64,000 nucleotides of DNA from Actinomycetes bacterium (GCA_025356335.1 JANXUF010000082.1:1910-65909); one strand, 5' to 3'; positions 5,886 to 34,574 are shown, counted from the stretch's first letter. A program made the numbers and translations. The notes: a model not told the origin generated them from the letters alone.

Positions 5886-6473
5886 TCAGGCCACGTTCGC
5901 CATTTGGCGCTTGCGGGTGATCATGTAGGCACCGCCGAGTACGGCGGCCCCGCCGAGGGGCAGCAGCACGTTGAGCGGAACTTCCGGCGTGTTGGCTGGT
6001 GGCGAAAAGCTGATAGGGGTAAAGAAATCAGAGGCGCTGTTCGTCGGTGTGCCAGGCGCAATCCGGATGTAGCAGGTCGTGTAGACCGGCCCGCCGCTGG
6101 CGGTGAGGCCGGCGTTTCCGCAGCCCCAGTCACCGTTACCGGGCTCATCGCCGGTGAACAGTGCGAAGGCCGAACCGGCATAGTTGCCGGAGTTGTCCGA
6201 CTTGAATTGAACTTCGTTGTAGGACGAGCAGTCGTTGAGATAGTTGAACGTCGGATCGGTGTCCGTCTTGCGGCACTCCTCGACGAAGCCGTACTGGCCA
6301 GGCAGAAGCCCGGTCCACGACACGTTCACACTGGGGTTGGCACCCGGTGTGCCGTCGATCCCGCTGCTCGGCGTCACGATCACGGAGGCGGCATTGGCTG
6401 CAGCGGCGAAGCCGGCGATGCCGACTGCGGCGACTCCTGCTGCCACGGCAATTCGCTTGATGCGCATTGTCAT
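5886..6473 (-). CDS. Small secreted protein of unknown function with PANxPExP-type C-terminal sorting tail
   Basis: Signal peptide MRIKRIAVAAGVAAVGIAGFAAAANA, with AAAGGA as RBS upstream of the ATG at 6473. Cys-containing ~130-aa domain. C-terminus PPANTPEVPLNVLLPLGGAAVLGGAYMITRKRQMANVA. Confidence 0.7.
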   Translation of the reverse strand: MTMRIKRIAVAAGVAAVGIAGFAAAANAASVIVTPSSGIDGTPGANPSVNVSWTGLLPGQYGFVEECRKTDTDPTFNYLNDCSSYNEVQFKSDNSGNYAGSAFALFTGDEPGNGDWGCGNAGLTASGGPVYTTCYIRIAPGTPTNSASDFFTPISFSPPANTPEVPLNVLLPLGGAAVLGGAYMITRKRQMANVA

Positions 6474-6584
6474 TGTTGTCCTTTCAAGACACACTGGAAC
6501 CGCACGCCCTTCGTACGTTCCCGGGTCCAGTGTCCGGCAACAGCCACACGATTGGAACCCTTTAGAGGGACTGTTGGCGAGCCC

Positions 6585-6627
6585 GTTTCCGAACGTTCAT
6601 GTTGCGTCCGCCTCACGTTTCCTCACT
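6585..6627 (+). promoter_or_regulatory. Candidate PHO-box-like direct repeats upstream of the 5886-6473 / PstS3 unit
   Basis: gtttccgaac gttcatgttgc gtccgcctcac gtttcctcact: GTTYNNN units at 10/11-nt phasing. The units are on the strand opposite to the gene, which makes this the weakest of the five sites. Confidence 0.3.
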
Positions 6628-6687
6628 GCCGGGTCTGCGGCAAATCGGCGTTGAAGAGACCGCCGATCGGCCGGTGCGGAACGCCGG

Positions 6688-7617
6688 TCAGCGAGTCGCA
6701 GCAAGAAGACTGTCAGCAAACAACGCGAGCCAAAGGAAGGCGACGAGCGCAACCGGCGCGAGTACGGCCAACACAAGGAGCGATCGCCCGCGTGCCTTGA
6801 GCAATCGCCACGTCAGCGCCGATGCCATCAGTCCGAGGTTCCCGTACAGCAGGAAAAGACCTGAAGGTTCATCCGGATCCGTCGCCAGCAACGAGATCGT
6901 CCGGGGCGTCGTCGGACCACCGGCGACGGAGTCCGGAGTAGTCGCGGTCACGACGAACGAGTCGTCGCTTGACCACCCACCGGCACCCGTTACGAGCACC
7001 AGTGTCGAGGTGCGGTCACTGGCCGGAGGAAGGCCGGCGGCGAGTTCGCTCTGCGGATACCTCCGCACGCCTGTGACGGTGTATGTGATGACGGGGGCCC
7101 TATTGCGCGCCTCAACGTAGATATTGTCGCCCTGTTTCAACTCGGGCACACCCTTGAACGGCCCGCCGTAAACCGATCGGTGGCCGAAAACAACGAGCGC
7201 ACCCCGCTGGCCCGGAAGCACACTCGATACGCTGACCGCCGGACCAGACCTCAGATTCGTGGCGTTCGCCCCAACAACGATCACTTCATTGACTCCGAGC
7301 GTCGGAATCTGAATCACACCGAACGCATCGCCGTTGCTGACCTTCGGCCGTCCGGAAGCAATCGCTGCAGCGAGGTGCCGCTGGCGTTGATCGTGCATCA
7401 GTCCGGTGATGAGTCGTTCGTATACAAGCAATCCCACGAAGGCCACCAGCACGACGACAACGGCACGCTTCAACCATCTCTCGGCCGAAATCCGCCGATG
7501 GACTCGACCTTTCCTGCGGACCGGCTGTGGGGCGACGGGAAGCGCTGCGCCGAATAACGGTGGTCGGACGGCCGGCACCGCAACGGTCGATGGATCCCCG
7601 GTCATCAGGTCCATCAC
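6688..7617 (-). CDS. Sortase-fold membrane protein lacking the catalytic Cys and Arg (pseudo-sortase)
   Basis: 309 aa. N-terminal TM anchor. Sortase pattern VVFGHRSVYGGPF...LKQGDNIYVEA...ITYTV. The TLxTC site reads TLVLVTGAGG (Gly codon GGT at 6985-6987) and the downstream Arg position reads DDSFVVTA. Extra C-terminal TM helices. 4-nt overlap with the upstream PstS-like gene. Confidence 0.65.
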   Translation of the reverse strand: MMDLMTGDPSTVAVPAVRPPLFGAALPVAPQPVRRKGRVHRRISAERWLKRAVVVVLVAFVGLLVYERLITGLMHDQRQRHLAAAIASGRPKVSNGDAFGVIQIPTLGVNEVIVVGANATNLRSGPAVSVSSVLPGQRGALVVFGHRSVYGGPFKGVPELKQGDNIYVEARNRAPVITYTVTGVRRYPQSELAAGLPPASDRTSTLVLVTGAGGWSSDDSFVVTATTPDSVAGGPTTPRTISLLATDPDEPSGLFLLYGNLGLMASALTWRLLKARGRSLLVLAVLAPVALVAFLWLALFADSLLAATR

Positions 7618-9545
7618 GAGCCTGCGAAACGTCGGAGATAGAACGAGCGCCCGAGAAGAAATCCGAGCGCACCGAGCACGAACGTTCCCAGTTTCTTGAA
7701 TCCACTCCCGTCCGAAGGTGAGCCCATCGGCAGTGTCGTCGAGTAGGTCGCCACCCGGGTCGACGGAGGCCCGGTGACGACTGCTTCAGTTGATGGCCGA
7801 GCTTCGATGGGCACTTCTGTTCCAACCGGCACCACGTCGGCGGGGAGCGTGACGGCGGCAACCGGCTCGGATTCAATTGTCCCCTCAGTCGTCGCTGTCG
7901 TCGTTGTCGTCGTTGTCGTTGTCGTTGCCGTTGTCGTTTTTGTCGTTGTTCTCGTCGCCCTCACAGCAGTGGTGGCTCGCGCCGCAGCGGTACTCGTGGC
8001 TTGCACCGTCGACTCGTCGACCGGTGTCTTCGTCGAGTCGGTGACAGTCGTCGGAACGGTTGTCGGCATTGCCGTCGTTTCCGTGATCGTCTCCGGAACG
8101 GTCGGAGTTTCGGCAAGGGTGGAGTCGGCGATGGTCGTCGGCTCTGGCGTCGGAACCATCGAGCAGTGCTTCATCGTCCCGATTGCGACAACCCCAGGTG
8201 TTGCCGGTTCGTTCGGGCCAGGCCCGCCGGACACGATCCGCTCGTCCGTCCCGGTGCAGTTGGACGCGACCAACGCGTCCGCCTGTTGCAAAGCCTCGAT
8301 CTTCATCGCCTGCGTCAGGCTGACGCCGCCGTTGTCAACAACCGTCTGCTGCCCGTCGGTCACAACGTACCGAATGAGCGCGGCAATAGCGTTTGTCTGC
8401 TCGATCGACAGACCACTGCTCGGCGCGTAGAGGCGATTTACATAAACCATGGGATAGGCCCCATCGACCTCGTTGGTTGCGGCATAGTTCGGCTGGTCGC
8501 CGCCGGCGACGAGCGCCGCTTGCACCGCCTGCGGGGTGGGAAGGACGTATTGGCCGAGCGCATTCCTTACTGAGGCCGTAACGAACTTCATACCGGAAGC
8601 GGCGTAGTCCTTCGTCGCCTTCTTCACCGAATCGGTGTTCACCGCTGCAGCGTTGGCACCCCACGACCCGCCGGTGTCGCCGTCGCTGTTCGGGAAGCCA
8701 GCGCGCGTGAACGCAGCCAACACGCCGGTCGTGTATCCGCCACGGGGAACTACCGTCGCTCCGGCACTGATCGGATAGCGCTCACCTGCCCCTGTCCAGT
8801 TGCGTCCGGACCCGGCCTTGCTCAACGCCAACGCCCAATCGTCAGGCGAGATCTTCTGGATGTAGTTCAGCAAATACTGGTTCACCGAGGTGCCCTCGAG
8901 TTGGTAGACGAAGGCGGCAAGATTCGGACTGTCGGGGTTGCTCAGCCGTAACGTCGGCACGTCGATGGCCGCTTTCCATGGGTCTGCACTGAAAAATGTG
9001 CGCCCGCCCCACCCGGCGATCAGCGCTGCGAGATTCTGCGGTGGCAGGTTCAGGTTGCCCACGTATGGCGTGTCGGTGGGATCGCACTGTTCGGCCCCCG
9101 CATCGAGCTCGCACCCTGCGGGAAGAAACGTTCGTATCTGATACATATCGGCCCTGATGCCGAAGAACACGGAAATCGACGCCACCGAGACGGGAACCGA
9201 GATCAACGGCGTCGAGTTGGCCGGCCGCGATCGCAGCTCGTCGGAGCTGAACGGGTCCGCCGAGATCGCGAAGTCCACCTTCCCATTCAGCAGCGCAGCG
9301 CGACCGTCCCGATCTCCCGACGTCTGATAGCCGACGTCCACCGATCCGGCGGCACCGTAGAGGGCGTTCTGCCACGGAATTACATCAGCGTTGAGGCCGG
9401 CTGCGCCTGCCCCAAAGATCTCGACCGGAACCGGTTCGGCAGCGGCCCACACCGGGCGCAACATCATCATCGAACAGGCGCCGGACAAAATGAAGCCGAG
9501 CGCCGATCTCACGGTGAGGTGGCCCCGACGTCGTCGCCGTTTCAC
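7614..9545 (-). CDS. Large PstS-like substrate-binding protein with Thr-rich linker and C-terminal TM anchor
   Basis: 643 aa. Signal peptide. PBP-like core (VDFAISADPFS). ~130-aa Thr/Pro/Glu-rich linker including a T10 run. C-terminus GFKKLGTFVLGALGFLLGRSFYLRRFAGS. Confidence 0.65.
   Translation of the reverse strand: MKRRRRRGHLTVRSALGFILSGACSMMMLRPVWAAAEPVPVEIFGAGAAGLNADVIPWQNALYGAAGSVDVGYQTSGDRDGRAALLNGKVDFAISADPFSSDELRSRPANSTPLISVPVSVASISVFFGIRADMYQIRTFLPAGCELDAGAEQCDPTDTPYVGNLNLPPQNLAALIAGWGGRTFFSADPWKAAIDVPTLRLSNPDSPNLAAFVYQLEGTSVNQYLLNYIQKISPDDWALALSKAGSGRNWTGAGERYPISAGATVVPRGGYTTGVLAAFTRAGFPNSDGDTGGSWGANAAAVNTDSVKKATKDYAASGMKFVTASVRNALGQYVLPTPQAVQAALVAGGDQPNYAATNEVDGAYPMVYVNRLYAPSSGLSIEQTNAIAALIRYVVTDGQQTVVDNGGVSLTQAMKIEALQQADALVASNCTGTDERIVSGGPGPNEPATPGVVAIGTMKHCSMVPTPEPTTIADSTLAETPTVPETITETTAMPTTVPTTVTDSTKTPVDESTVQATSTAAARATTAVRATRTTTKTTTATTTTTTTTTTATTEGTIESEPVAAVTLPADVVPVGTEVPIEARPSTEAVVTGPPSTRVATYSTTLPMGSPSDGSGFKKLGTFVLGALGFLLGRSFYLRRFAGS
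7889..7957 (-). repeat. GTY/ACN triplet low-complexity tract encoding poly-Thr
   Basis: gtcgtcgctgtcgtcgttgtcgtcgttgtcgttgtcgttgccgttgtcgtttttgtcgttgtt encodes TTTKTTTATTTTTTTTTTATT on the minus strand. Confidence 0.9.
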
Positions 9546-11398
9546 GAGCGCAGGCCTTCACGCTTCGAAGCTCCAGCCACGAGCACCCCGAGGGCGCAGA
9601 CGCCGGCACCCTCCAAGAGAGCCCACGCCACCTGTTGGCCATCGACACCAACTTTCGCTTCGGCGCTGACCACCGGGCCGGCCTTCTTCACCGCGACCTG
9701 CCCTGAAGAGATCGCTGCCTGGGTTCGACCATCGACGCTGTCCGGCGGTGTGTCGACTGTGAGCGCTGCGGCGTCAGTTTCGGACGTGCCACCCGCAGCT
9801 CCTGAGTCGACGGCTGTTTGCTGCCCGTCTACTACACACGAGGCGTCTGAAGAGGACGCGGTGGTCGCTGGGACCGAGGATTCTGTCGAGGCAGTGGTCG
9901 AGAGATCTGTCGCGGTTGGAGTCAACGGATCTGGCGTCGTTGCCACCGACGTCGTGCAGGTCGGCGAAATCGTTGCCGGCGCACCACCAACCACCGTTAC
10001 TGTCGACGTCGCTTTCGTCGTCACCGTCGACGACCCCGATTTTGTCGTCACCGTCGACGACCCAGCCTTTGTCGTAGCTGTCGAGGACCCGGCCTTTGTC
10101 GTCACCGAGGAGGACCCGGCCTGGGTCACCGTCGCCCCGCCGGGCTGTGTTGCCGCCGGCTGCCCGGCCTTTGTCGTCACCGACTTCGGTGCCGTCGTCG
10201 TAGAGGGGGTCGTAGTGGTGACAGTCGGTGAACCGCTCAGTACGGCGCACTGCTCCCATGGAGGGGCTCCCGGAATCTTGGCGATCGCATCCTTGGCAAT
10301 AGCGACCAACTCAGCTGACAGCGGAGCGTACCCGTCGGGGATGCTCTGCTTGCCCTGGCCCTTCGTCACTGCGTAGCAAAGAAATCGCGCCAGCACCTGC
10401 CCCTTGGCGGGGTCGAAGCCGGTCGTCTGGGAAATCACATAGCTATAGGTCGAGGGGAAATAGGCGGCCGGATCGCTCGCCGAGAACTTGAGGATGAAAG
10501 TGCCGTCGTCGTTCTTCTGTGCGTATGACAGCGCCTTGTTGACGTTCGCCGCCGTCGGCGCAAGAAAATTCCCGGCCGCCGTCTGCATCAACGCGTTCGG
10601 AAATCCATCCTTGATCGCAAAGCCGGCCTCGTTGTAGGTGATGGTTCCTTCGCCATTCGAATCGGCAACGACTGACGCCACGCCGTCAGCATTGAAACCC
10701 GTGACACTGTGGCCGAACTGCGGCGGCCACGTCGACGTCGGTCGCCCGGCGATCAGTTCCGGGTCACCCGTCTGCGGTCCGAGCGTGGCAGCGAACTTCT
10801 GCCAGACGTCTGGGGCAACAGCGATACAGAATTGGGAGAACACATAGCTGGTTCCGGAACCGTCCTGACGTACCACTGGCCGAACCAGTTCATGCTTGAA
10901 GGCGATGTCCGGGTTCGGTCCGGCGATGTCCGGATCGTCCCAATACAGATCGGCCGTCTCGGTGAATATGCGGCACGCGGCCCGGCGGGTCAATTTGAGG
11001 TCGGTGATCTGTGCGCCGCTCTCGTCGGTCAAGTTGTACATCAGTCCCAAGCCGCCAGCACTCACTGGGACGTAGACGAAGTCCTTGCGCGGCGAGGCGT
11101 TGAGCGGCCCTATCTCCGAAGGTTGGAACGGGATATCGGACGCGCCGAAATCCAGGCTCCCCTGGATGTATTGCGTGCGCCCGTACGTCGAACCCTGCGA
11201 GTTGTAGTTGACGGAAAGGCTGTAGGGAGCTTTGCCGGTTTCGGCCTGCCACTGGTCGATCTCGAGCTTGGCGAACGATGAACCGCCACCATTGACGGTC
11301 GCACCATCGGCGAAGCTGCTCGGCACGCGCGCAAGCAATGGGGTAGCGGCCACGGCCGCCGCAGCCAAGAGCCGCACCAGCTTTGTCCAACGGTTCAT
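9542..11398 (-). CDS. pstS: PstS phosphate-binding protein with Ser/Thr-rich repeat linker and C-terminal TM anchor
   Basis: 618 aa. Signal peptide. GGGSSFAKLEIDQW and LDFGASDIPF PstS motifs. TTKAGSSTV 9-aa repeats. C-terminal helix ALLEGAGVCALGVLVAGASKRE. 4-nt overlaps with pstB and with the next PstS-like gene. Confidence 0.8.
   Translation of the reverse strand: MNRWTKLVRLLAAAAVAATPLLARVPSSFADGATVNGGGSSFAKLEIDQWQAETGKAPYSLSVNYNSQGSTYGRTQYIQGSLDFGASDIPFQPSEIGPLNASPRKDFVYVPVSAGGLGLMYNLTDESGAQITDLKLTRRAACRIFTETADLYWDDPDIAGPNPDIAFKHELVRPVVRQDGSGTSYVFSQFCIAVAPDVWQKFAATLGPQTGDPELIAGRPTSTWPPQFGHSVTGFNADGVASVVADSNGEGTITYNEAGFAIKDGFPNALMQTAAGNFLAPTAANVNKALSYAQKNDDGTFILKFSASDPAAYFPSTYSYVISQTTGFDPAKGQVLARFLCYAVTKGQGKQSIPDGYAPLSAELVAIAKDAIAKIPGAPPWEQCAVLSGSPTVTTTTPSTTTAPKSVTTKAGQPAATQPGGATVTQAGSSSVTTKAGSSTATTKAGSSTVTTKSGSSTVTTKATSTVTVVGGAPATISPTCTTSVATTPDPLTPTATDLSTTASTESSVPATTASSSDASCVVDGQQTAVDSGAAGGTSETDAAALTVDTPPDSVDGRTQAAISSGQVAVKKAGPVVSAEAKVGVDGQQVAWALLEGAGVCALGVLVAGASKREGLRS
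10013..10121 (-). repeat. 27-bp in-frame tandem repeat, 4 copies
   Basis: Units begin at 10013, 10041, 10068 and 10095 (tttgtcgtcaccgtcgacgacccagcc-like) and encode TTK(A/S)GSST(A/V). A degenerate fifth copy lies near 10168. Confidence 0.85.
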
Positions 11399-12354
11399 CC
11401 GAACCGCCCGGTGACGTATGCCAGCGTGCGTTCGTCCGAGGGTTGATTGAACAGATGGTCAGTGGCACCCGCCTCGACGATGCGCCCCGGCACGCCCTGC
11501 TCCTCGACGAGGAAAAACGCACACTGGTGCGATACACGTTGCGCCTGCTGCATGTTGTGCGTCACGATCACGATGGTGATGTCGTCAGCAATCTGCTGAA
11601 TCGTCTCCTCGACCACGCGCGTCGAGATCGGATCGAGTGCAGAGCACGGTTCGTCCATCAGCAACACCCGTGGACGGACGGCAAGCGAACGAGCGATACA
11701 CAACCGCTGCTGCTGGCCTCCGGAAAGCGACATCCCACCCTCGTTGAGGCGGTCCTTGACCTCCGTCCACAGCCCCGCCCGCGTCAGGCATTCCTCGACC
11801 AATGCATCCCGGTCGGTCGACTTGGTCCCTGACAGCTTCAACCCGGCCAACACATTCTCACGAATCGACATCGCCGGGAATGGATTGGGTTTCTGGAACA
11901 CCATGCCAATGCGCATCCGGACCTGAGTGACGGACAATTCGCGTCCATAGATGTCGACGCCGTCGAGTTCGACGCTGCCAGCGACTTTTGCCACGCGGAT
12001 CACTTCGTGCATCCGATTGAGGATGCGCAGGAACGTCGACTTGCCACAGCCGGACGGCCCGATCAGCGCCGTGACCTGACGAGCCTCCATTCGCAGGCTG
12101 CACCGTTGTAGGACCTTCCGCGACCCGAACCACGCGCTGACGTCCGTGGCAGCGAGCGTCGCCGGCGATCCGGAACCGAGACTCGTGCCGGGCATGGGCT
12201 GCGTGGACGGAACTGGAACCTTCGCGATCTCTCTGGCGATGAGACCGCTACTCCAACTGTCCGGTTCGGCCGCAACGATCGGCGGGAGGCCGTTCCAATC
12301 CTCCAACGACGGATCCTGCGTCGCCACCTCTCTTTCGAATTGATCGAACGACAT
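11395..12354 (-). CDS. pstB: Phosphate ABC transporter ATP-binding protein
   Basis: GPSGCGKSTFLR (Walker A), LSGGQQQRLCIARSLAV, LLMDEPCSALDP, THNMQQAQRVS. Has a ~55-aa N-terminal extension if the 12354 start is used. Confidence 0.9.
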   Translation of the reverse strand: MSFDQFEREVATQDPSLEDWNGLPPIVAAEPDSWSSGLIAREIAKVPVPSTQPMPGTSLGSGSPATLAATDVSAWFGSRKVLQRCSLRMEARQVTALIGPSGCGKSTFLRILNRMHEVIRVAKVAGSVELDGVDIYGRELSVTQVRMRIGMVFQKPNPFPAMSIRENVLAGLKLSGTKSTDRDALVEECLTRAGLWTEVKDRLNEGGMSLSGGQQQRLCIARSLAVRPRVLLMDEPCSALDPISTRVVEETIQQIADDITIVIVTHNMQQAQRVSHQCAFFLVEEQGVPGRIVEAGATDHLFNQPSDERTLAYVTGRFG

Positions 12355-12357
12355 CTG

Positions 12358-13551
12358 CTAGTTCCTTCCAAGTCGCTTGGCGCCGCGGGCCCCGATCCAC
12401 CGAGCCATGGTGAAAAGCACCAGCACGAAGAGCAGCAACAGCAATGCAGCCGCCCAGGCTCTGTCGTTCTGCAGCACGCTCTGGGTCCTGATGTTGCCGT
12501 AGGCGAAGGTGGGCAGCGACGATTGCGGTTCCTTGAGCGGGTTCTTGTTCATGAATTTGCTGTCAAATGCTGTCAGCAGAACGGGCGCCGTCTCTCCGAT
12601 CGCCCGGGCAATACCAAGAATCGACGCCGTCAACAGTCCGCTCTTGGCGGTGGGGAGGACCACTCTGGTCACGACGCGCCACTGCGGAGCTCCGAGCGCC
12701 AATGCCGCCTCACGGAGCGAGTCCGGCACGGTCCTGAGAATCTCTTCCGACGTTCTGGTCACCGTTGGAATCATCAAGATGGCCAAGGCCTCTGCAGCGT
12801 GGATACCCGCATATCTGGGCCAGATCGAGAAGATCAGCAGGCCGGCGACGATCGAGGGCAAGCCGGCCAGTCCTTCGACGATGAAACGGATCGCACGCGC
12901 CATCCGCCCTTCCAGCTCGTGGAGATAGACCGCAGTCAGAATGGACACCGGTATCGCAAACGCGGCGGCTATGCCCACCTGTTCGAAGCTGCCGACCATC
13001 GAATGCAAGACGCCGCCGCCAGGAGTATTCGGACCTGCGGTTCGCATGTCGCGGACGAGAAAGCCTGGGCGGAGTTGCTTGACACCCTTGAGGGCGACGA
13101 ACCCGAAGATCCACATGAGGCTGGCGACGACGAGGGCCCCGATGACCCATATCAGGGTCGTCGTCATGCGATCGGCAGCGAGTTCCTTCGTCGACGACTG
13201 CCGCACGAGCGCGTAATGGAAGCAGATGAACGACACCAGGAAGAGAACGACGAAGCTGAGCAGGCCGCCCCAATCGAGCAGCATCCGCAGGGCGACCACC
13301 AGATTGACTGCGGTGAGTGTCGCGAGCGTATATTCGACCACGACGGCGCTGGTCGTCCGCCCGACTGAGCGCGGCGAATCGTCATCGTCGGAATCCTGAA
13401 TGTCGGCAACCACCTCACTGGTGACGGAGTGGACTCTCCTGCGCCGCCTCGGTCCCTTCCGCGCTGTCGCAGGTCCGCGAAGCATCGTCGGCACCGCTCC
13501 CGAAGCTTCATCGGTGAGTACCTCGCCGGAGGAAATGTCGGCAGAAGTCAC
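12358..13551 (-). CDS. pstA: Phosphate ABC transporter permease PstA (long N-terminal extension)
   Basis: Six-TM MetI-type permease core with the EAALALGAPQWRVV loop. 4-nt overlap with pstC. Confidence 0.85.
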   Translation of the reverse strand: MTSADISSGEVLTDEASGAVPTMLRGPATARKGPRRRRRVHSVTSEVVADIQDSDDDDSPRSVGRTTSAVVVEYTLATLTAVNLVVALRMLLDWGGLLSFVVLFLVSFICFHYALVRQSSTKELAADRMTTTLIWVIGALVVASLMWIFGFVALKGVKQLRPGFLVRDMRTAGPNTPGGGVLHSMVGSFEQVGIAAAFAIPVSILTAVYLHELEGRMARAIRFIVEGLAGLPSIVAGLLIFSIWPRYAGIHAAEALAILMIPTVTRTSEEILRTVPDSLREAALALGAPQWRVVTRVVLPTAKSGLLTASILGIARAIGETAPVLLTAFDSKFMNKNPLKEPQSSLPTFAYGNIRTQSVLQNDRAWAAALLLLLFVLVLFTMARWIGARGAKRLGRN

Positions 13552-14540
13552 GAGAACCTCGTCGTTCTGGCCACGACGCGGCGGGCTGCGAATCCGACGG
13601 TGAAGGTCAATGCCATGAGCGCAACGCCGGAGGCGACAAGCGCGCTGAGCTCGAGCGGCGACGCCTCTCCGAACCGGAGGAAAATGTTCGCGGCGATCGA
13701 ACCGGCACCGTGTTGCACGATATGAGGGTTCGCTTGATACGAGATATTCTGTAGTACCAGAGCGACCGCCACGGTTTCACCCAGCGCTCTGCCGAAGCCC
13801 AGCATGGTCGCGCCGACGACGCCGGATTTCCCATACGGCAGAATCACGTCGCGGATCATCGCCCACCGACTGCCGCCCAATGCCAAAGCGCCTTCGCATT
13901 GTTCCCGTGGGACCCGCGCCATCACGTCTCGGGAGACCGACGTGATGATCGGCACGATCATCATCCCGACGACCAGACCGGCGATCATGCTGCTCCCGGT
14001 GAAGTCCGGCTTGCCTGTTGCGTTGCTGAGCCGGAAGAACGGGATCGCAACCAGGTGGTCCGAGATCCAACGCGAGACGGGGATGAGATGGTTCTTGAAG
14101 GCGAAATAGCCCCACATACCGAAGATCAGGCTCGGCACCGCAGCAAGCAGATCGATCACGGCTGTCAGCGTCCGACCGATACGCGGCGGCGCGTACTCGT
14201 TGACGAACAACGCCATCCCGACGGCTAGCGGCACCGCCACGATCAGCGCAATTGTGGCGATGGTGATCGTTCCGATCACGAGGCCGAGTACGCCGAAATC
14301 GCCAACCGCTGCGTTCCAGACGCTCGCTGTGAAGAAGTGCCACACACCGGTTTTGGCGAGCGCCGGTCTGGATTTGTTGAGCAGAAAGATCGCCGTCGCG
14401 GCGATGATCACCAATGCCACGGAGGCGGAGGCGACGCAGATCACCCGGAAGATTCGATCGCCGACCGTCGGGTTGTCAGCCGGCCTGATCGGTATGTCGT
14501 TCGACGGATCGTCGCTGAATCCCACCGGAGGCGCGACCAT
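13548..14540 (-). CDS. pstC: Phosphate ABC transporter permease PstC
   Basis: Permease core with EGALALGGSRWAMIRDV. I prefer the ATG at 14540 because a GAGGAG RBS lies 8 nt upstream. The ATG at 14567 is an alternative. The ORF-track start at 14849 is an Arg/Ser-rich extension. Confidence 0.85.
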   Translation of the reverse strand: MVAPPVGFSDDPSNDIPIRPADNPTVGDRIFRVICVASASVALVIIAATAIFLLNKSRPALAKTGVWHFFTASVWNAAVGDFGVLGLVIGTITIATIALIVAVPLAVGMALFVNEYAPPRIGRTLTAVIDLLAAVPSLIFGMWGYFAFKNHLIPVSRWISDHLVAIPFFRLSNATGKPDFTGSSMIAGLVVGMMIVPIITSVSRDVMARVPREQCEGALALGGSRWAMIRDVILPYGKSGVVGATMLGFGRALGETVAVALVLQNISYQANPHIVQHGAGSIAANIFLRFGEASPLELSALVASGVALMALTFTVGFAARRVVARTTRFS

Positions 14541-14617
14541 GGGCGCGGCTCCTCGCAGGAATGTCATGCCCCGATGTTGCGAGACCTGAGTAGACACCAA
14601 CTGACGTGCGGATGGAC

Positions 14618-14650
14618 GCCAGATGAACAGTGGTCCAGTCGGCTGTGAAC
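14618..14650 (-). promoter_or_regulatory. PHO-box-like repeats in the pstC / exosortase divergent region
   Basis: Minus strand reads GTTCACAgccg actggaccact GTTCATCtggc, with the two GTTCA units 22 nt apart. The site lies 78-110 nt upstream of the pstC ATG (14540) and ~50-80 nt upstream of the exosortase ATG (14701). Confidence 0.5.
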
Positions 14651-14700
14651 TCGACACTGACCGGCATGTAGCGAGGTCGGGTTCCTGCGAGCCTCGTGGC

Positions 14701-16461
14701 ATGAGCGCTGTCACGCCCCGACTGACCGACGATCTCGAGTCCACAACGGTCAATGGCCTGCCCGCCACATCAGTCGCTAGGACATTCCGAGTCACCGCAC
14801 TTGTGTCATCGGTGCGCACTGGCAGGTGGGTTCGCCCGGCGATCGTCACCGGCAGCGTCGTCCTTGCGTATCACACCAGCCTGCAGACGCTCATCGACGG
14901 ACTCAGCCTCGACACCCCGATCGCTCATCTTGCGTTGGTCCCGCTGATAGCCCTGATGTTGGCGCTCGCCGCCCGCCACAACGACGCCGGTCCGGATATC
15001 AGCGACCGTCAGCTGGATTGGATCGTCGGGTTCCCGCTCGTCTTTGGGGCGTTGATGGCGAACTTGATTTTGCCGGCCCGACTGTCGGCGCAGTTCTGGC
15101 TGTGGCGTATCGACTTACTGACGATGCCCTTCTTTGCGGCTGGCGTCGTCACCCTCGTCTACGGTATTCGCACGACCTGGAAGATGCGTTACGGCCTGTT
15201 CTTCCTGTTCCTCGCATGGCCCTATCCGTACAACGTTGCTCTGACGAACTGGCTCGGCAAGTTCACCGACCTCACCGTCGCCGGGCTTGCCAAGTCGCTC
15301 AACGTCGTCCACCTCGCCAGGCAGATGGGCAATGGGTCGCCACTGTTCGAAATCACCCATGGAACATCCAAGTTCACGCTCTCCGTTGCCTCCGCCTGTT
15401 CGGGAGCGAACGGGCTCGTCGGGTTCCTGCTCGTCGGCATCGCCTTCGCGTTGATGGTCGAAGGCACGCGCTGGCAGAAGTTCCTGTGGTTGGCAATCGG
15501 CGCGATCCTCGTGTGGCTGCTGAACATCGGCCGTCTGCTCGTGGTGTTCTTCGCCGCTCATCGTTGGGGTGAGAAAGTGGCGATCGACGGTTTCCATCCG
15601 TTCGTCGGTCTGATCGCCTTCACGCTCGGCGTAGCGATCATGGTGCTGGTGATGGGACGTTTCGGTCTGCGATTCAAAGCGATCGACAACCGAATCAAGG
15701 CAAAAGCCAAGGCAGCACTCACGAGTCGCTCATCGACTGCCCCACGACTGCGCTACAGCGCGATGTGCGTCGCAGTGATGACCCTCGGCGTCGGCTTCAT
15801 GAACTCCAGCCTGGAGAAGAACGACCTCGTGTCCACGAGTCTCGGCTCGCCCCGGCTCGTCGCGTTCGCCGAGAGCAAGGAGACGCCACCCGGGTGGAAC
15901 CTTCAGACCGTGCAAACGATCGAATGGGCGAAACCGTTCTTCGGCGACAGCTCCGAATGGGTGAGATACCAATACCTCAGCGCCGGCACGACCTCGGACC
16001 TGCAGTCGTCCGCCCCGATCACGACGGACATCATCGATACACCGAGTCGGTCGGCACTCAACGCCTATGGCGTCGAGGCGTGCTACAACTTCCATGGCTA
16101 CAAGGTCACAGGTGTGAAAAGTGTCGACATGGGCGGCGGTGTCGTCGGCGAGCTACTCACTTGGAGTAGTCCGAATGGCAAAGTCACATATACGACTCTC
16201 TACTGGCATTGGCCGATCAAGACACCGAAGGGGACGAGCTACGAACGGGTCACTCTGATCATCGTCGACCAGCCGTCGAATACCTTCAAATCCCCGGATC
16301 TCGGGACGAGTTTCGTCGATCAGATCGGCATCAAGGCGAACGACGCGATTCGATCGGCAGGCAACGACGAGTCCGTCGACCGCCTACTGCGGACCCGTCA
16401 ATTCCTCGTCGCCTTCGGCCGTGAGATGATTCAGAAACGCAAGCCGGCAGCGACCTCCTGA
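14701..16461 (+). CDS. Exosortase/archaeosortase-family membrane protein with fused C-terminal EpsI-like extracytoplasmic domain
   Basis: Polytopic. Motifs LSVASACSGANGLVGF (Cys codon 15397-15399), LLNIGRLL (Arg codon 15532-15534), then AAHRWG / DGFHPF His residues. This Cys..Arg..His order and spacing (C-R = 45 aa) is typical of exosortases. After one more TM helix comes a ~220-aa domain containing YGVEACYNFHGYKV. The start is uncertain: ATG 14623 or 14701, or GTG 14803. Confidence 0.75.
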   Translation: MSAVTPRLTDDLESTTVNGLPATSVARTFRVTALVSSVRTGRWVRPAIVTGSVVLAYHTSLQTLIDGLSLDTPIAHLALVPLIALMLALAARHNDAGPDISDRQLDWIVGFPLVFGALMANLILPARLSAQFWLWRIDLLTMPFFAAGVVTLVYGIRTTWKMRYGLFFLFLAWPYPYNVALTNWLGKFTDLTVAGLAKSLNVVHLARQMGNGSPLFEITHGTSKFTLSVASACSGANGLVGFLLVGIAFALMVEGTRWQKFLWLAIGAILVWLLNIGRLLVVFFAAHRWGEKVAIDGFHPFVGLIAFTLGVAIMVLVMGRFGLRFKAIDNRIKAKAKAALTSRSSTAPRLRYSAMCVAVMTLGVGFMNSSLEKNDLVSTSLGSPRLVAFAESKETPPGWNLQTVQTIEWAKPFFGDSSEWVRYQYLSAGTTSDLQSSAPITTDIIDTPSRSALNAYGVEACYNFHGYKVTGVKSVDMGGGVVGELLTWSSPNGKVTYTTLYWHWPIKTPKGTSYERVTLIIVDQPSNTFKSPDLGTSFVDQIGIKANDAIRSAGNDESVDRLLRTRQFLVAFGREMIQKRKPAATS

Positions 16462-17007: not shown

Positions 17008-17119
17008 CAGAACGCTACCAGCGGCTGCGGCCGGCGGTTTTGTCTGCCACGCATCCTCGAGATGAACAGCGTCGGATCATCGTTGGAGCGCACCCACCGC
17101 TCGGACTGCTACGGTCCGG

Positions 17120-18385: not shown

Positions 18386-18447
18386 CGCTACGTCGATGTC
18401 GCTCCGTGGACGCACGATCGGTGACCAGCCGCCCCTCGGAGGAAACC

Positions 18448-19200
18448 ATGCTCGCTCTCCCACCCTCGTCGCGTTCCATCCGCTCACCGCGTGCGAGGAA
18501 GATTCGCAACGCTGCGTTCACCGGCGCCGTCGCACTCGTCGCGGTGATCGGGGTGCCGGGGTCAGCCTGGGCCACGGCGACCTCGGCAACCGGTGCCGTC
18601 GAAATCGTCTCCGCACCGCCGAGCGTCGCCGACGGCGCATACGAGAGCAATACAGCGATTCGTGTGTTCGACGAGTCGCAAGTGACGATCAGCAGCGGGC
18701 CGATTCCTGGCGGGGCAGCGCTCGTTGCTCCGCCGCAGACCGTTACCTGCCTGCAATCGCACATGATCCACTTCGACGCCGCCGGCACATCTCGAACAAG
18801 GCTGTCGGGCACCGTGACCTTCTCGCAGGACATCGTCGCCATCATCGGGACGAACAGACCGTTCGGGTTCCTGTTCAGGCCGCTTGACTTGACCGACCGC
18901 ATCGTCGGAGCCCACGGCACGACGTATCACTCGCCTGGCGATTCGAGACGCGGGGTCGAATTCCTCGACGACGATGTCGTTACCGTCGACGCGCACGATC
19001 GGAAAACCGTCGCCGTCAACCTCGGTGGTGACGGCTTCGACGAGGTTCGCGTCCTGACGAACTGCGATGTGCCGCCGGCCGACGTCCCGGAAGTTCCATT
19101 GAACGCGCTGCTCCCTCTCGGCGGCCTTGCGGTCGTCGGTGGGAGCTACGGCTGGTCACGTCGCGGACGCACGAGGCGGAACGTATCCGTCGGAGCGTAG
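18448..19200 (+). CDS. Secreted protein of unknown function with PANxPExP-type C-terminal sorting tail
   Basis: Signal peptide MLALPPSSRSIRSPRARKIRNAAFTGAVALVAVIGVPGSAWA. C-terminus PPADVPEVPLNALLPLGGLAVVGGSYGWSRRGRTRRNVSVGA. The 3' end overlaps the convergent phosphatase gene by 55 nt. Confidence 0.7.
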   Translation: MLALPPSSRSIRSPRARKIRNAAFTGAVALVAVIGVPGSAWATATSATGAVEIVSAPPSVADGAYESNTAIRVFDESQVTISSGPIPGGAALVAPPQTVTCLQSHMIHFDAAGTSRTRLSGTVTFSQDIVAIIGTNRPFGFLFRPLDLTDRIVGAHGTTYHSPGDSRRGVEFLDDDVVTVDAHDRKTVAVNLGGDGFDEVRVLTNCDVPPADVPEVPLNALLPLGGLAVVGGSYGWSRRGRTRRNVSVGA

Positions 19201-20777: not shown

Positions 20778-20836
20778 TGTTGCTCCTCGAATCCGACTGA
20801 CCACCATTTGTGTGGCTCGGTGAAGCCTGCGCCCTG

Positions 20837-25134: not shown

Positions 25135-25138
25135 GGAA

Positions 25139-27174: not shown

Positions 27175-27246
27175 CAGTGGCCAACAGTCGCCGATGCGCC
27201 AGAACGTGGATCGACCGGACGATCGTCGTGATCGAACGATTCGACG

Positions 27247-27714: not shown

Positions 27715-27735
27715 CGAACGCAGTATGGTGCGCCC

Positions 27736-28698: not shown

Positions 28699-28828
28699 CC
28701 GTTTAGGCGGACCGACCAGTTACGTCGCGTCGGGGACGCGGCGCCGGCGCGACCTGACTCCGAAGCCGAGCACGCCGAGCCCGGCCAACGGCAACAGGAT
28801 GGCAACCGGTGTCCAGCCGTCACACGCT

Positions 28829-28865
28829 GGCGCCTCGGATCGCATCACTTACGATCTGAGGCGCC
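28829..28865. terminator. Hairpin between convergent CHAD and TIGR03943-like genes
   Basis: ggcgcctcggatcg / catcactta / cgatctgaggcgcc: a 14-bp stem with one G-T pair, 33 nt past the stop at 28898. Confidence 0.45.
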
Positions 28866-28897
28866 GGCGTCGCGTCCGGCACCGGGTCCGTACGGCA

Positions 28898-30711: not shown

Positions 30712-30743
30712 CCCGCAGATGTATGTGCGATGACGGCGCCGAA

Positions 30744-30776
30744 CGTTTGCCGGATGTTCGTCTGTCGTTCAACTGC
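30744..30776 (+). promoter_or_regulatory. PHO-box-like repeats upstream of the 5'-nucleotidase
   Basis: GTTTGccggat GTTCGtctgtc GTTCAactgca: three consecutive 11-nt units, 82-114 nt upstream of the ATG at 30858 (RBS GGGAGG). The site is shared with the divergent permease gene. Confidence 0.5.
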
Positions 30777-30857
30777 ACGTCTGCTGGGCGATTGGTGACG
30801 GTGGCGGAACTGTTGACAGACCTGTAGACGGCTTCAGGTTGCCATGGGAGGCACAGC

Positions 30858-32966
30858 ATGAAACACCGACACTCCGCCACGCTCCGTACCATCGGCGTCG
30901 TGGCCCTGCTCGGCGCGGCGATCATCGCACCGCTGGCATCGGGATCGTCCGCCAACGCGACAGTGATCTCCGGAGCGAACAGCATCGGCGACACCGTCAA
31001 GATGGCCTTCCCAGGAGCGGGAAGCGGAGCGACAACGAGCATCCACGTGCTCGGCTTCAACGACCTGCACGGCAACCTCGACGCGACGGCAACGACTCCT
31101 GCGAAGCAGTACGGGACGTTCGCCGGCGGTGCAGCCAACCTCGCCAATCTCGTCGCCTCGAAGAAGTCTGCCTACGGCGCTTCCGACGTCGCCACGGTCT
31201 ACGCCGGTGACGCCGTCGGTGCCTCGCCGCTGATCAGTGCCGTCTACAACGACGAGCCGACGATTGTCGCCCTCGACCAGATGGGCATCGACTTCGCCTC
31301 GGTCGGCAACCACGAATTCGACAAGGGCTTCACCGAACTGCAGCGCCTTGCCAAAGGCTGCAGCACTGCGCCGGATCCGTCCGCCTGTTCTGTCGCCAAG
31401 ACCAAGATCCATGCCGACAATGTCGCCAAGGGCACCTCGAACGCCGAGGACTACATCCTGCCGGGCGGCGGCACGAGCCCGACCTATCCCGGTGCCAATT
31501 TCCAGTACCTGTCGACGAATGTTCGCACGACATCGTCCGGCAACCTCGCCGAGAACACGCTGTTCCCAGCGTACGGCACCAAGGACTTTCCGTCGAGCAG
31601 CGGCGGCACGATCAAGGTCGGATTCATCGGCCTGACCCTGAAGGACACGCCGACGATTGTCTCGCCTGGGGGTGTCGCCGGACTGACGTTCGACCCGGAG
31701 GTCGCGGCTGCGAACGCCGCCGCCACGAAGTTGAAGGCGCTCGGCGCCAAGACGATCGTGATGCTCCTGCACCAGGGCGGTTTCCAGGCCGGAACCGCTG
31801 TCCTCAACGGCTGCGCAGGCAACCTCGACCCGGCGGTCAACGCCTCCAACCAACCGATCTTCGACATCGTCGGCCCGTCGAGCGGCCTCGATCCGGACAT
31901 CGGTGTGATCATCAGCGGACACACGCACACCGAGTACGTGTGCACGATCACCAACGGTACGCAGACACGACTGATCACCAGCGCGTCGGCGTTCGCCAGG
32001 GTGCTCACCGACGCCACCTTGACGATTTCCAACGACACCGGCGAGTTGAAGCTCGCCAGCGCCGTCAACCAGATCAACTCATCGTCCTCGAACGCCACGA
32101 CGTTCACGGCGCTGCCGGGCGATCCGACCACGGCGGCGATCGTCGCCCAGTACCGGACTGCAGTCGCCTCGACCGCCCGTGCCATCGTCGGCAGGATCAC
32201 TGCCAGTTTCAGCAACTCGGTGCAGGCGCCATACGGCGAAATGACAGCCGGGGACCTCGTCGCCGACGCTCAACTCGCGGCAACGGCGAGCCCGTCGAGC
32301 GGTGGCGCACAGATAGCGCTGATGAACTCCGGCGGCGTCCGTTCGCCCGGCCTCGTCTTCTCCGGCAGCGGAACACTGACGTACAACGACGCTTTCACGA
32401 TGCAACCGTTCTACAACTACCTCGTCACCAAGACGATGACGGGTGCCGACATCCGCTCGGTCCTGGAGGAGCAGTACGTCGGCTGCGGCGGCCAGACCGT
32501 GCAGCGCATCATGCTGGCGTCGACGGGTTTCCGGTACGAGACCAATCCGGCAGCGGTGCCATGCGCAGCGAAGATCGGCGCGATCCAGTTGAACGGTATC
32601 GATATCGTGCCGACGCAGACCTATCGCGTGACGATGAACAACTTCATGTACGGCGGCGGCGACGGCTACGGCGTCTTCAAGAACGCCCCCCAGGACGGTG
32701 TGTACGGCCAGTTCGATATCGACGCCCTGGTCGCCTTTCTGCAGCCGAGTATCGCCGGTCCGGCGTTTTCGCCGATCGCGCTGAAGACCTCGGCCCCCGT
32801 GCTGTCATCAGATCCGAACCGGATCGTCTCGATCGGCAGCCTGCCGCCAGGGGTCCCGGCAAACGTGCCGGAGGCGTCGAACCCCGCATTCCTGCTGCTC
32901 GCCGCCGGCGGTGTCCTGCTGCTCGGCATGTGGTTCACCAACCGCAAGCGTGCGAGCGTCGCCTGA
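30858..32966 (+). CDS. Secreted bifunctional metallophosphatase / 5'-nucleotidase with PANxPE-type C-terminal sorting tail
   Basis: Signal peptide. VLGFNDLHGNLD, GNHEFD, ISGHTH. C-terminal 5'-nucleotidase domain. C-terminus VPANVPEASNPAFLLLAAGGVLLLGMWFTNRKRASVA. Confidence 0.85.
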   Translation: MKHRHSATLRTIGVVALLGAAIIAPLASGSSANATVISGANSIGDTVKMAFPGAGSGATTSIHVLGFNDLHGNLDATATTPAKQYGTFAGGAANLANLVASKKSAYGASDVATVYAGDAVGASPLISAVYNDEPTIVALDQMGIDFASVGNHEFDKGFTELQRLAKGCSTAPDPSACSVAKTKIHADNVAKGTSNAEDYILPGGGTSPTYPGANFQYLSTNVRTTSSGNLAENTLFPAYGTKDFPSSSGGTIKVGFIGLTLKDTPTIVSPGGVAGLTFDPEVAAANAAATKLKALGAKTIVMLLHQGGFQAGTAVLNGCAGNLDPAVNASNQPIFDIVGPSSGLDPDIGVIISGHTHTEYVCTITNGTQTRLITSASAFARVLTDATLTISNDTGELKLASAVNQINSSSSNATTFTALPGDPTTAAIVAQYRTAVASTARAIVGRITASFSNSVQAPYGEMTAGDLVADAQLAATASPSSGGAQIALMNSGGVRSPGLVFSGSGTLTYNDAFTMQPFYNYLVTKTMTGADIRSVLEEQYVGCGGQTVQRIMLASTGFRYETNPAAVPCAAKIGAIQLNGIDIVPTQTYRVTMNNFMYGGGDGYGVFKNAPQDGVYGQFDIDALVAFLQPSIAGPAFSPIALKTSAPVLSSDPNRIVSIGSLPPGVPANVPEASNPAFLLLAAGGVLLLGMWFTNRKRASVA

Positions 32967-32987
32967 GCCCACGTAGTACCTCTCGCT

Positions 32988-33024
32988 GGCAGTAGATGTC
33001 GCAGATTCTGCGACATCTACTGCC
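32988..33024. terminator. Perfect 17-bp hairpin, bidirectional terminator candidate
   Basis: ggcagtagatgtcgcag att ctgcgacatctactgcc, lying between convergent genes that end at 32966 (+) and 33048 (-). Confidence 0.6.
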
Positions 33025-33047
33025 GGCGTTCACATTTTTCGGCCGCC

Positions 33048-33466
33048 TCAGATCGCTCGCATCCTGTTGTTACGGGCGTGGTGTTCGACTTCGGCGAGGC
33101 CGAGCACTTCGAGCACTGGCGGCACGTAGTTGCCGAACCGCCCCGCAACCCCTTCTTGAACCCGTACCAGCCACCGACGGGATTGTCGGTCGATCGCCCC
33201 CACGCTTCCACGGTTCCGTCTGCCGCCGGCTTCTGTTCGTCAGCGTTGCCGAGCGGCATCCAATCGCCGGCATCCGTCAGCATCGCGTGGAGATCCTCGA
33301 TGCACGACAGGTGATAGCGCAATTGCGTCTTGCCGACCTGGACCACGAGCGCCGGAGGCGACGCGTCCGGATCGCGATACGCCTCGAACGAACTGCTCCC
33401 CGGCGGGGTCGTCAACTGCCATGGGTCGCTCGGAGTTCCGGTGCCTGCTACATCGTCGATGTTCAT
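33048..33466 (-). pseudogene. Conserved actinobacterial hypothetical protein with an apparent 1-nt frameshift in a G-run
   Basis: The frame reads ...NPVGGWYGFKKGLRG up to ~33140. The adjacent frame then continues RFGNYVPPVLEVLGLAEVEHHARNNRMRAI* and stops at 33048. The listed ORF instead runs into a Cys/Ser-rich tail ending at 33017, inside the hairpin. Confidence 0.6.
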
Positions 33467-33536
33467 GGAGTCACTGTCTCATCTCGAAGGTGACATCTGC
33501 TGTCATCTTCTTCGACAGTTCGACTACGGTTCGTCG

Positions 33537-34208
33537 GTGCGCGCCGCCCGCCTCCTCGACATGTTGCTGCTGCTCCAGCGACGAGGGCGGATGACGGCGA
33601 CGGAACTGGCCGACACGCTCGAGGTGTCGCGTCGGTCGATCCTGCGCGACGTCGAGGCGCTCAGCGAAACAGGTGTGCCGATCTTCACGACGAGGGGCGC
33701 GGGCGGCGGCATCGAACTGTTGGACGGATTCCAGACACACCTCACCGGTCTGACCACCGAGGAAGCGATGTGTCTGTTCCTCGTCGGCCAGCCACGGGTT
33801 GCTCACCGGCTCGGCCTCGGTGCGCCGACGTCGACGGCGCGCAACAAGCTGATCAGCGCTCTCCCCCAGGCGCTCGCCGACGAAGCCGACCGCTTGTCCA
33901 GCTGGCTGCTCCACGACCCGGATCCGTGGACGGGCAACCGAATTCCTCACGGTGAGCTCAGGAGGTTGGCCCGTATGGTGCGCGAACAACGCCAAGTCGA
34001 GCTGACCATTGCCGACCATCCGACCATCATCGTCAAACCCATCGGCCTGGTGCTCAAGGCCGGTTCATGGCACCTCGTCGTCTGTGGTCGCAGCGAGGCC
34101 GACGTCATGTGCATCGACGAGTTGCGGGCAACGAGGCTCACCACTCAGCGATTCATCCCCCCGTGCGACTTCGACCTCGCCACGTTCTGGAAACAGCACA
34201 CCGCCTGA
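33537..34208 (+). CDS. YafY-family HTH + WYL-domain transcriptional regulator
   Basis: RAARLLDMLLLLQRRGRMTATELADTLEVSRRSILRDVEALSETGVPI, and later KAGSWHLVVCG (WYL-like). A GTG start at 33537 is proposed; ATG starts further upstream are possible. Confidence 0.75.
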   Translation: MRAARLLDMLLLLQRRGRMTATELADTLEVSRRSILRDVEALSETGVPIFTTRGAGGGIELLDGFQTHLTGLTTEEAMCLFLVGQPRVAHRLGLGAPTSTARNKLISALPQALADEADRLSSWLLHDPDPWTGNRIPHGELRRLARMVREQRQVELTIADHPTIIVKPIGLVLKAGSWHLVVCGRSEADVMCIDELRATRLTTQRFIPPCDFDLATFWKQHTA

Positions 34209-34253
34209 CACGGCTACGGGCGCGATGGCGACGCCCGTACCGCGGTTGTCGGG

Positions 34254-34574
34254 TCAGGCCGGTGTGACATCCACATGCTCGCCGCGGCGACGGAAAGCGA
34301 CCATGCCGCCGACGAGCACTACGGCAGCGGCGACGGGCATCATGACCGCGAGCGGTGATTCCGGGATGTTCGCCGGCACGCCGGACCACGGTCCACTGAT
34401 CGCAGAGGTGATGCCGGGAACCTGCGTGTTGACGAACATGAACGTGCCGTCACGTGAGAAACAGACACAGCGCACCGTACCGGGCGACGCTGTCGCTGTA
34501 CGGCGTGGCGCTCGACGCGCCTGGGGCGATCGGCGTGCCTGCAGCCCCGGCGTGCAGCCCCGGCGTTCCGGCAA
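34254..34574 (-). pseudogene. Relic 3' end of a PhoX/DUF839-like secreted phosphatase carrying the PANxPE sorting tail
   Basis: DGTFMFVNTQVPGITSAISGPW resembles the C-terminal FVNxQHPG...ItGPW end of PhoX-type proteins (from memory). It is followed by VPANIPESPLAVMMPVAAAVVLVGGMVAFRRRGEH. Only 66 nt separate this ORF from the ppk stop, so no full-length gene can exist. No RBS before the internal ATG at 34439. Confidence 0.4.

Follow-up and report, generated by a model that had tools for sequence, protein, structure and literature searches.

Tails and exosortase gene in the window

We analysed a stretch of 64,000 nucleotides (nt) of DNA from an Actinomycetes bacterium (GCA_025356335.1, JANXUF010000082.1:1910-65909), referred to as the window, for C-terminal tails consisting of a Pro-Glu motif, a membrane helix and a cluster of basic residues, and for the exosortase-family gene located among them. 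The tails belong to a family with a constant anatomy, they occupy a strictly C-terminal position, they are modular, and they are linked in two phyla to an exosortase family whose catalytic triad is conserved. We consider it probable that they represent a distinct C-terminal sorting domain recognised by the exosortase encoded at 14701-16461. A first-pass annotation of the window had proposed that the tail is cognate to the neighboring exosortase, and this is supported by the recurrence of tails beside homologous exosortases in two phyla, by their C-terminal position and by their modularity.

The features concerned are the following (positions are those of the window; aa, amino acids; ORF, open reading frame).

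14701..16461, plus strand: exosortase-family gene, 586 aa; the ORF opens at 14623
5886-6494, minus strand: protein A, 202 aa, small and secreted, with a weak neocarzinostatin-like match, in the pst operon
5886-6002, minus strand: tail of A, SPPANTPEVPLNVLLPLGGAAVLGGAYMITRKRQMANVA
18406-19200, plus strand: protein B, ORF of 264 aa, called as 250 aa, secreted, without known domain
19072-19200, plus strand: tail of B
30858-32966, plus strand: protein C, 5'-nucleotidase of 702 aa with a 5'-nucleotidase C-terminal domain and a signal peptide-like N-terminus
32853-32966, plus strand: diverged tail of C, VPANVPEASNPAFLLL...NRKRASVA
34254-34574, minus strand: D, remnant ORF in frame directly behind the ppk stop codon, without signal peptide
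34254-34379, minus strand: tail of D, which looks intact
28720..28848, minus strand: fifth tail-like ORF of 42 codons, …DGWTPVAILLPLAGLGVLGFGVRSRRRRVPDAT (VMRSEAPACDGWTPVAILLPLAGLGVLGFGVRSRRRRVPDAT), without Pro-Glu

Translation of the four tail intervals reproduced exactly the peptides given in the first-pass annotation. These were however cut off at the basic cluster: all four tails extend 4-8 residues beyond it and end in ...RKRQMANVA (A), ...RRGRTRRNVSVGA (…NVSVGA; B), ...RKRASVA (C) and ...RRRGEHVDVTPA (…HVDVTPA; D). Signal peptides were judged by eye. By inspection, signal-peptide-like N-termini (basic, hydrophobic, AxA-like) are present in A (...AAANA/AS), B (...GSAWA/TA) and C (...SSANA/TV), and most tail ORFs in the comparative loci described below likewise start with a basic-hydrophobic-AxA N-terminus. 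The signal peptides ascribed to the full-length carriers were thus found again in A, B and C. The same annotation had spoken of four secreted proteins; D is a decayed remnant without signal peptide and so not among them.

A tail profile built solely from the loci of other organisms was tested on the 1046 six-frame ORFs of the window. With this leave-window-out profile A scored 55.4 bits (E 2e-16), B 47.0 bits and D 37.6 bits. The number of tails had been described as far more than chance, and the E-values of 2e-16 to 8e-11 obtained with an independent profile, compared to a maximum of 9.6 bits for the best reversed-sequence decoy, are in agreement with this. In the window search with the tail profile the ORF at 28720-28848 reached 25.2 bits (E 6e-7). 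Located downstream of an ArsP-type permease pair, it probably represents the decayed remnant of a fifth tail.

The tail family in relatives and databases

For comparison we used 80 loci (numbered with the prefix L), picked by exosortase homology alone, with one genome per species and 10 kb around the enzyme. Nearly all belong to the Acidimicrobiia (Ilumatobacteraceae, Aquihabitans and others) and about 15 to the Chloroflexota; the closest relatives of the window are metagenome-assembled Acidimicrobiia. Within 10 kb of the exosortase about 60 ORFs of these loci end in x-x-[VIT]-PE-[VAS]-P-…LLP…GG…RRRR. A locus tail profile gave about 62 matches above 25 bits among the 11,834 six-frame ORFs. The density of tails peaks less than 1 kb from the exosortase with 1.2 per 10 kb, compared to 0.1-0.5 farther away, and the majority of Chloroflexota loci contain a tail ORF whose end lies immediately upstream of the enzyme. 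The gene of one tail protein, retrieved solely via the tail profile, precedes an exosortase gene by 50 bp on a contig of 194 kb.

A global profile made from the four window tails and four returned tails was searched against 1.84 billion representative proteins (E <= 0.001) and matched 458 protein clusters. Among the best 150 of the 458, PE[VAST]P is found in 143 and classical PEP in 2. A word-index variant of the search gave 7 matches, mostly fragments, and was uninformative. A profile scan for further members and a comparison of C-terminal with internal positions had been suggested earlier as checks. The scan yielded the 458 clusters in addition to the roughly 60 ORFs in 80 loci. As to position, Pro-Glu lies 29-46 residues from the C-terminus in 148 of the 150 best matches, and all but one of the locus matches above 25 bits end at most 8 residues from the stop codon.

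The family signature is PPxx[VT]-PE-[VAST]-P-x3-LLP-x7-GG-x4-RRR, followed by 2-10 more residues. Residue frequencies were taken from 192 distinct aligned tails, with PE serving as alignment anchor (positions 0 and +1, counted from the P of PE).

Position -5 / -4: P 66% / P 48%
Position -1: V, T or I
Position +2: V 40%, A 34%, S 13%, T 11%
Position +3: P 92%
Position +8 / +9: L 92% / P 88%
Position +17 / +18: G 78% / G 71%
Positions +23 to +25: RRR

PE and the basic cluster are spaced 20-23 residues apart in 180 of 191 tails. The tripartite architecture of PEP-CTERM type (motif, helix, basic cluster) noted in the first-pass annotation is therefore found throughout. Of the motif given there, PANxPE with PExP, the PExP core applies to the whole family, but PAN or PAD occurs at variable positions and is a lineage-specific flavour. 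The strict pattern PA[ND]xPE occurs 12 times in the six-frame ORFs of 1.32 Mb, and 7 of these 12 occurrences are true C-terminal tails.

When the tail is trimmed off, the carriers fall into at least 57 unrelated passenger clusters. The largest of them, with 37 members, is the family of protein A; tail-bearing orthologs of A occupy the corresponding place in the operon in L002, L004, L005 and L009. Tail-bearing homologs of B occur in L019 and L030. Most carriers have no match in Pfam, and the cargo recognised by Pfam consists of PhoX (2), 5'-nucleotidase, metallophosphoesterase, GH5 cellulase (2), NHL, LTD and neocarzinostatin-like proteins (3). A link between cargo and phosphate, as suggested at first, holds for the locus in Acidimicrobiia but not for the signal itself, since the cargo of relatives includes GH5 cellulases, NHL and LTD proteins and many unknowns.

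The exosortase

The product of 14701-16461 matches PF09721 (Exosortase_EpsH) with 80 bits (cutoff 25.7) and TIGR04178 with 55.9 bits (cutoff 23; NCBIfam release of June 2026), and judged by these profiles it is a bona fide member of the exosortase family. The family profile finds a single copy in the window, in line with the earlier statement that this is the only exosortase gene. None of the named subtypes (XrtA, D, E, J, M, R, S, V, W, X; ArtC; CrtC) passes its cutoff; the best subtype score is 62.2 for XrtA, compared to a cutoff of 208, and for the XrtJ and XrtG models no match was listed. The candidate catalytic residues are Cys233 (15397), Asn275 and Arg278 (15523 and 15532) and His299 (15595). 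C233 (in ASACSG), N275, R278 and H299 (in GFHP) are invariant in 23 homologs with 39-70% identity. More than 600 homologs exist, which are named just “exosortase/archaeosortase family protein” in their sources.

The protein consists of a polytopic membrane core and a conserved C-terminal extracytoplasmic domain of about 200 aa with mixed alpha/beta structure (residues ~385-586, window 15850-16461). The mean pLDDT (predicted local distance difference test) of its AlphaFold model is 74. Invariant in the C-terminal domain are Y456, G457, E459, C461, H465, W502, W504, P505, E515 and R516. No relative of this domain was found in Pfam or the PDB (Protein Data Bank): a Foldseek search with the model gave no match at E <= 0.001, and the PDB sequence search returned chance matches to antibody chains and nothing else. 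Weak Foldseek likenesses of the domain (E 0.01-0.1) to 3lyd (Jonesia), LpqN, Mtc28 and START/Ups1-type lipid binders were not relied on.

Processed signal or plain anchor

Several observations weigh against the tails being substrates of this exosortase. Linkage was measured solely within 10 kb of exosortase genes, so that the sample is selected on the enzyme. In 42 of the 80 loci, many of them short, no tail reaches 25 bits, and these include the cultured Aquihabitans sp. McL0605 (L032). Protein C scores just 5.8 bits with the leave-window-out profile, which is within the noise. An ortholog of the 5'-nucleotidase (P0283) has no exosortase within 10 kb, yet this in itself neither supports nor refutes the pairing. 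A second enzyme family shares the loci, with sortase-fold homologs in 19 of the 80. Finally, cleavage of the tail is deduced by analogy for every member.

The last point bears on the possibility that the tails are plain unprocessed C-terminal anchors, whose motif reflects helix-capping preferences together with common descent. A membrane helix and a basic cluster suffice for anchoring, and PstS and PstS2 of the same operon have helix-plus-basic tails that are free of the motif. Such anchors would however not need PE, Pro at +3, Leu at +8 and Pro at +9 at fixed spacing on at least 57 passenger families in two phyla, nor does anchoring explain that the tails cluster tightly around the exosortase gene. 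We regard this explanation as unlikely.

The tails might instead be substrates of another enzyme, either an unlinked protease or the following protein, a second candidate that the first-pass annotation had missed.

6688-7617, minus strand: sortase-fold protein, between the PstS2 gene and gene A

It matches PF04203 with 55.6 bits (cutoff 26.6), while all class-specific NCBIfam sortase models stay below their cutoffs (class E 61.6 vs 160). Its gene lies directly upstream of A, and LPXTG-anchor models give weak matches to the tails, of 14-15 bits against a cutoff of 15.9 (TIGR01167, 14.0-14.9; PF00746, 13-14.5 vs 20), which stem from the helix-plus-basic part alone. The protein however lacks any Cys, its clade having G, S, N, D or A instead, and because the nucleophile is missing it is an unlikely processor. 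The true sortases of sister loci have substrates of their own, namely PstS proteins ending in LA[FYLT]TG; in Chloroflexota loci, tails and exosortase occur without any sortase within 10 kb; and no LPXTG or LAXTG motif is present in the four window tails. Processing by a sortase or an unlinked protease is very unlikely in our view.

Comparison with known sorting systems

A further question is whether the tails are ordinary members of the PEP-CTERM or PExPT-CTERM families already described. They have the same tripartite architecture and their enzyme belongs to the same superfamily. The PExP core also has a precedent, since a PExPT-CTERM model (TIGR04200, the XrtJ target) exists in NCBIfam; that this model is present in the library used here was seen from a weak match to a control tail. 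A comparison with existing PEP-CTERM-type models had been proposed along with the first-pass annotation. In searches up to E 10, eight representative tails gave no match to TIGR02595 or TIGR04200 and did not reach the cutoff of any other NCBIfam model; seven tails tested on Pfam were not matched by PF07589 and reached the cutoff of no other Pfam model. In contrast, classical PEP-CTERM control tails scored 29.4 and 32.2 bits with TIGR02595 (cutoff 16), and one of them 33.5 bits with PF07589 (cutoff 20.7). In addition the enzyme passes no named Xrt model, and in the searchable literature we found no paper linking exosortases with Acidimicrobiia or with phosphate genes. Membership in the described families is highly improbable; for classical PEP-CTERM it is refuted by the missed models, the detected controls and the 2 of 150 best matches with PEP.

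PEP-CTERM/XrtA (EpsH) is the system with which most traits are shared: a C-terminal Pro-Glu motif, membrane helix and Arg cluster, carriers with signal peptides, a wide range of passengers that are unrelated and for the most part cannot be annotated, multiple copies per genome, an enzyme of the exosortase family with Cys/Arg/His triad, and linkage to glycosyltransferase genes. The tails described here differ in having PE[VAST]P instead of a near-invariant PEP and in the additional LLP and GG within the helix, and the enzyme differs from XrtA by its length of about 580 aa, its fused C-terminal domain and its score of 62 bits, far from the XrtA cutoff of 208. The locus is associated with pst and phosphatase genes, and the hosts are Acidimicrobiia and Chloroflexota. 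PEP-CTERM was originally defined for hosts that possess an outer membrane and EPS genes; its occurrence was stated to be limited to outer-membrane bacteria and not to include Actinomycetes (Haft et al. 2006, PMC1569441).

With PExPT-CTERM/XrtJ the tails share, judged by its name, the one-residue insertion of PExP. They are not matched by TIGR04200, and no XrtJ match was obtained for the enzyme. XrtJ targets are short, low-complexity proteins encoded next to XrtJ.

PGF-CTERM/ArtA of Haloferax has a homologous enzyme family, which works there in a single-membrane cell. It differs in the motif (PGF), in the domain of life and in the enzyme subfamily (ArtC 28 bits vs 100). ArtA has been reported to remove the PGF-CTERM helix with linked lipid attachment, as sole family member so far (summarised in bioRxiv 10.1101/2023.06.07.544157), and would be the best mechanistic analogy for a monoderm host. 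Sortase/LPXTG-type anchoring follows the same logic with the same tripartite layout, and sister lineages have it in these very loci, where the LAXTG substrates together with sortase argue for a monoderm wall in the hosts. Its enzyme fold is unrelated, and in the tails described here LPXTG and LAXTG are absent and the motif abuts the helix. A motif placed directly at the helix without spacer is typical for membrane-embedded sorting enzymes, unlike LPXTG (bioRxiv 10.1101/2023.06.07.544157). The comparison of the sequences indicates that tail and enzyme are a new flavour of a known surface-anchoring system, with the exosortase as a still unnamed subtype.

The window has 63.8% G+C. High-GC genomes give many ORF ends rich in Ala, Gly, Leu and Arg, two non-tail C-terminal PA[ND]xPE matches being such cases, but a chance likeness among hydrophobic C-termini has a negligible probability: it is refuted by the 458 global clusters and by E-values between 2e-16 and 8e-11 where decoys reach 9.6 bits at most.

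Proposed mechanism and possible role

For the reading of the tails as a sorting domain of the exosortase, cleavage, the transfer step and the acceptor are taken by analogy from PEP-CTERM/XrtA and PGF-CTERM/ArtA. Once exported by the Sec pathway, the protein would remain membrane-bound through its tail helix, the Arg cluster lying on the cytoplasmic side. PE-x-P would be positioned right at the outer surface of the membrane and there encounter the membrane-embedded site of Cys233, Arg278 and His299, and the exosortase cysteine would cut off the helix at the motif. The mature protein would then be passed to an acceptor in the envelope, lipid or glycan, possibly the product of the linked glycosyltransferases. 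Because glycosyltransferases are linked, a glycan or glycolipid acceptor is a reasonable guess. In this organism the system appears to serve mainly phosphate-scavenging proteins.

A broader interpretation, which we put forward tentatively and hold to be possible although somewhat doubtful, is that in Acidimicrobiia and some Chloroflexota the exosortase provides a third route of surface display beside lipoproteins and sortase, Pho-controlled and covalently linking phosphate scavengers. If this were true, scavengers such as PhoX, 5'-nucleotidase and phosphoesterases would lose their PE-x-P tail to an enzyme with a fused extracytoplasmic domain, probably under Pho control, and be joined to a lipid or to a glycan that the adjacent glycosyltransferases synthesise, so that they would stay at the cell surface during phosphate starvation.

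To our knowledge, what is known of exosortase systems comes almost entirely from bioinformatic work on double-membrane bacteria and from one archaeal enzyme studied at the bench. The pair found here is clean and widespread, with at least 458 tail clusters and more than 600 enzyme homologs. It occurs in an abundant, poorly cultured actinobacterial class, and it would extend the exosortase system to Gram-positive-type cells, where it was not expected. It would tie protein sorting to a regulon that is physiologically readable, that of phosphate starvation. For annotators, new sorting-domain and enzyme models would become available for proteins now called “hypothetical” or “exosortase/archaeosortase family protein”. 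Substrates of sortase and exosortase side by side in one locus would also offer a natural comparison of two anchoring routes.

Protein C and the remnant D

The tail of C was compared with those of its homologs. Each of its nine closest homologs (53-97% identity) has a membrane-helix-plus-basic tail at the end, with Pro-Glu in eight and Ser-Glu in one, and seven of the nine score 10-34 bits with the leave-window-out profile. Their tails grade from a canonical form (…PPPDVPEAPVPILLGLGG…RRRR) into the variant of C. Among the matches listed, 111 further homologs (47-51% identity) stop at …DRIVAPAP and have no tail. Since near homologs are tailed and distant ones tail-less, the tail is an add-on module and that of C is a degenerate, diverged member of the family.

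BLASTP of D against the tail-bearing PhoX of L002 gave two short collinear stretches, PNGFSYTIV (near PhoX residue 85) and FSRDGTFMFVNTQVPGI (near residue 613), within the region 34254-34640 on the minus strand, each of them individually non-significant. A full-length PhoX with the same tail is present in L002 and L004, and short homologs of the remnant were found in the protein collection (P0128, 61 aa; P0215, 194 aa). D would accordingly be a PhoX gene after a large internal deletion of about 500 codons. Because the matches are short and non-significant, this designation as a PhoX relic, already used in the first-pass annotation, is plausible but unproven.

Phosphate genes and glycosyltransferases around the exosortase

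The phosphate neighborhood spans 4.6 to 36.6 kb of the window and comprises pstSCAB, extra binding proteins, a metallophosphoesterase, a purple acid phosphatase, the 5'-nucleotidase, a CHAD protein and ppk. The phosphate context claimed for the tail genes is confirmed. The further genes mentioned in this section are:

9542..14540, minus strand: pstC-pstA-pstB-pstS, divergent from the exosortase gene
7614-9545, minus strand: second PstS-like protein (PstS2), between pstS and gene A
63-1877, minus strand: weakly PMT-like membrane protein, part of a glycosyltransferase set (63..4401) located downstream in the same direction
1874-3496, minus strand: processive-type GT2, cellulose-synthase/PgaC-like
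3604-4401, minus strand: polyprenyl-phosphate-sugar-synthase-like GT2

In most of the longer Acidimicrobiia loci the exosortase adjoins pstC/A/B/S. Gene orders and orientations differ between them, suggesting that proximity is under selection. Between pstC and the exosortase gene of the window GTTCA-type direct repeats with 11-nt phasing are located at 14610-14650 (minus strand): GTTCACAGCCG ACTGGACCACT GTTCATCTGGC GTCCATCC. The arrangement is kept in L002, L004, L005 and L006, relatives with the same divergent layout. The repeats resemble the “PHO boxes” of actinobacterial PhoP; if these PHO-box-like repeats are real, the pst operon and the exosortase could both be phosphate-regulated.

Of the 80 loci, 43, among them every Chloroflexota locus, have a homolog of the GT2 at 1874-3496 no more than 10 kb from the exosortase. 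The trio of glycosyltransferases (PMT-like, GT2, GT2) accompanies the exosortase in many loci; a further example is L085 (13569-15425). O-glycosylation of the sorted proteins is conceivable because PstS, PstS2 and some of the cargo have long linkers of Thr, Ser and Pro.

The gene of protein B is flanked by the metallophosphoesterase and the purple acid phosphatase genes. It is convergent with the latter (19146-20807, minus strand) and the two overlap by 55 nt at 19146-19200; the final 18 codons of the B tail are therefore encoded opposite the C-terminus of the phosphatase.

Sortase homologs without cysteine and the tails of PstS

In the sortase-fold protein at 6688-7617, which contains zero Cys, LVLVTGAGG aligns with TLTTCNP of the true sortases of sister loci (TLxTC). 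Ten homologs from eight loci, the window's included, are without the catalytic Cys, which is replaced by G, S, N, D or A. This clade comprises the window, L002, L004, L005, L009, L041, L061, L049, L057 and L064. Its members show LVLVTGAGG or LTLVT[SNDA] at the position concerned, and Arg or His are often absent too. The genes are located inside pst operons, after the second PstS-like gene. From their sequences the members of the clade look like pseudo-enzymes maintained by selection.

The PstS of sister lineages ends in LA[FYLT]TG followed by a helix and RRRL and is encoded beside a true class-E-like sortase (L013-L015, L025, L028, L033, L036, L044-L046, L048, L051, L052, L055, L063); by these features it is a predicted wall-anchored ABC binding protein. 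In the lineage of the window the tails of PstS and PstS2 differ (7614-7790 and 9542-9700), reading …AWWLxQGAxVCAxG…RRR and …SLP[MLQ]xxPSDGxxGFKKLGTLMLGA…, and this change coincides with the sortase homolog lacking Cys. Just after LAxTG, PstS tails show a conserved [ND]-P-[VL]-P abutting the helix (e.g. TGGNPVPIVL), which recalls the position of PE-x-P. Such tails were found in L022, L025, L028, L042, L044-L046, L048, L050-L052, L055, L058 and L063.

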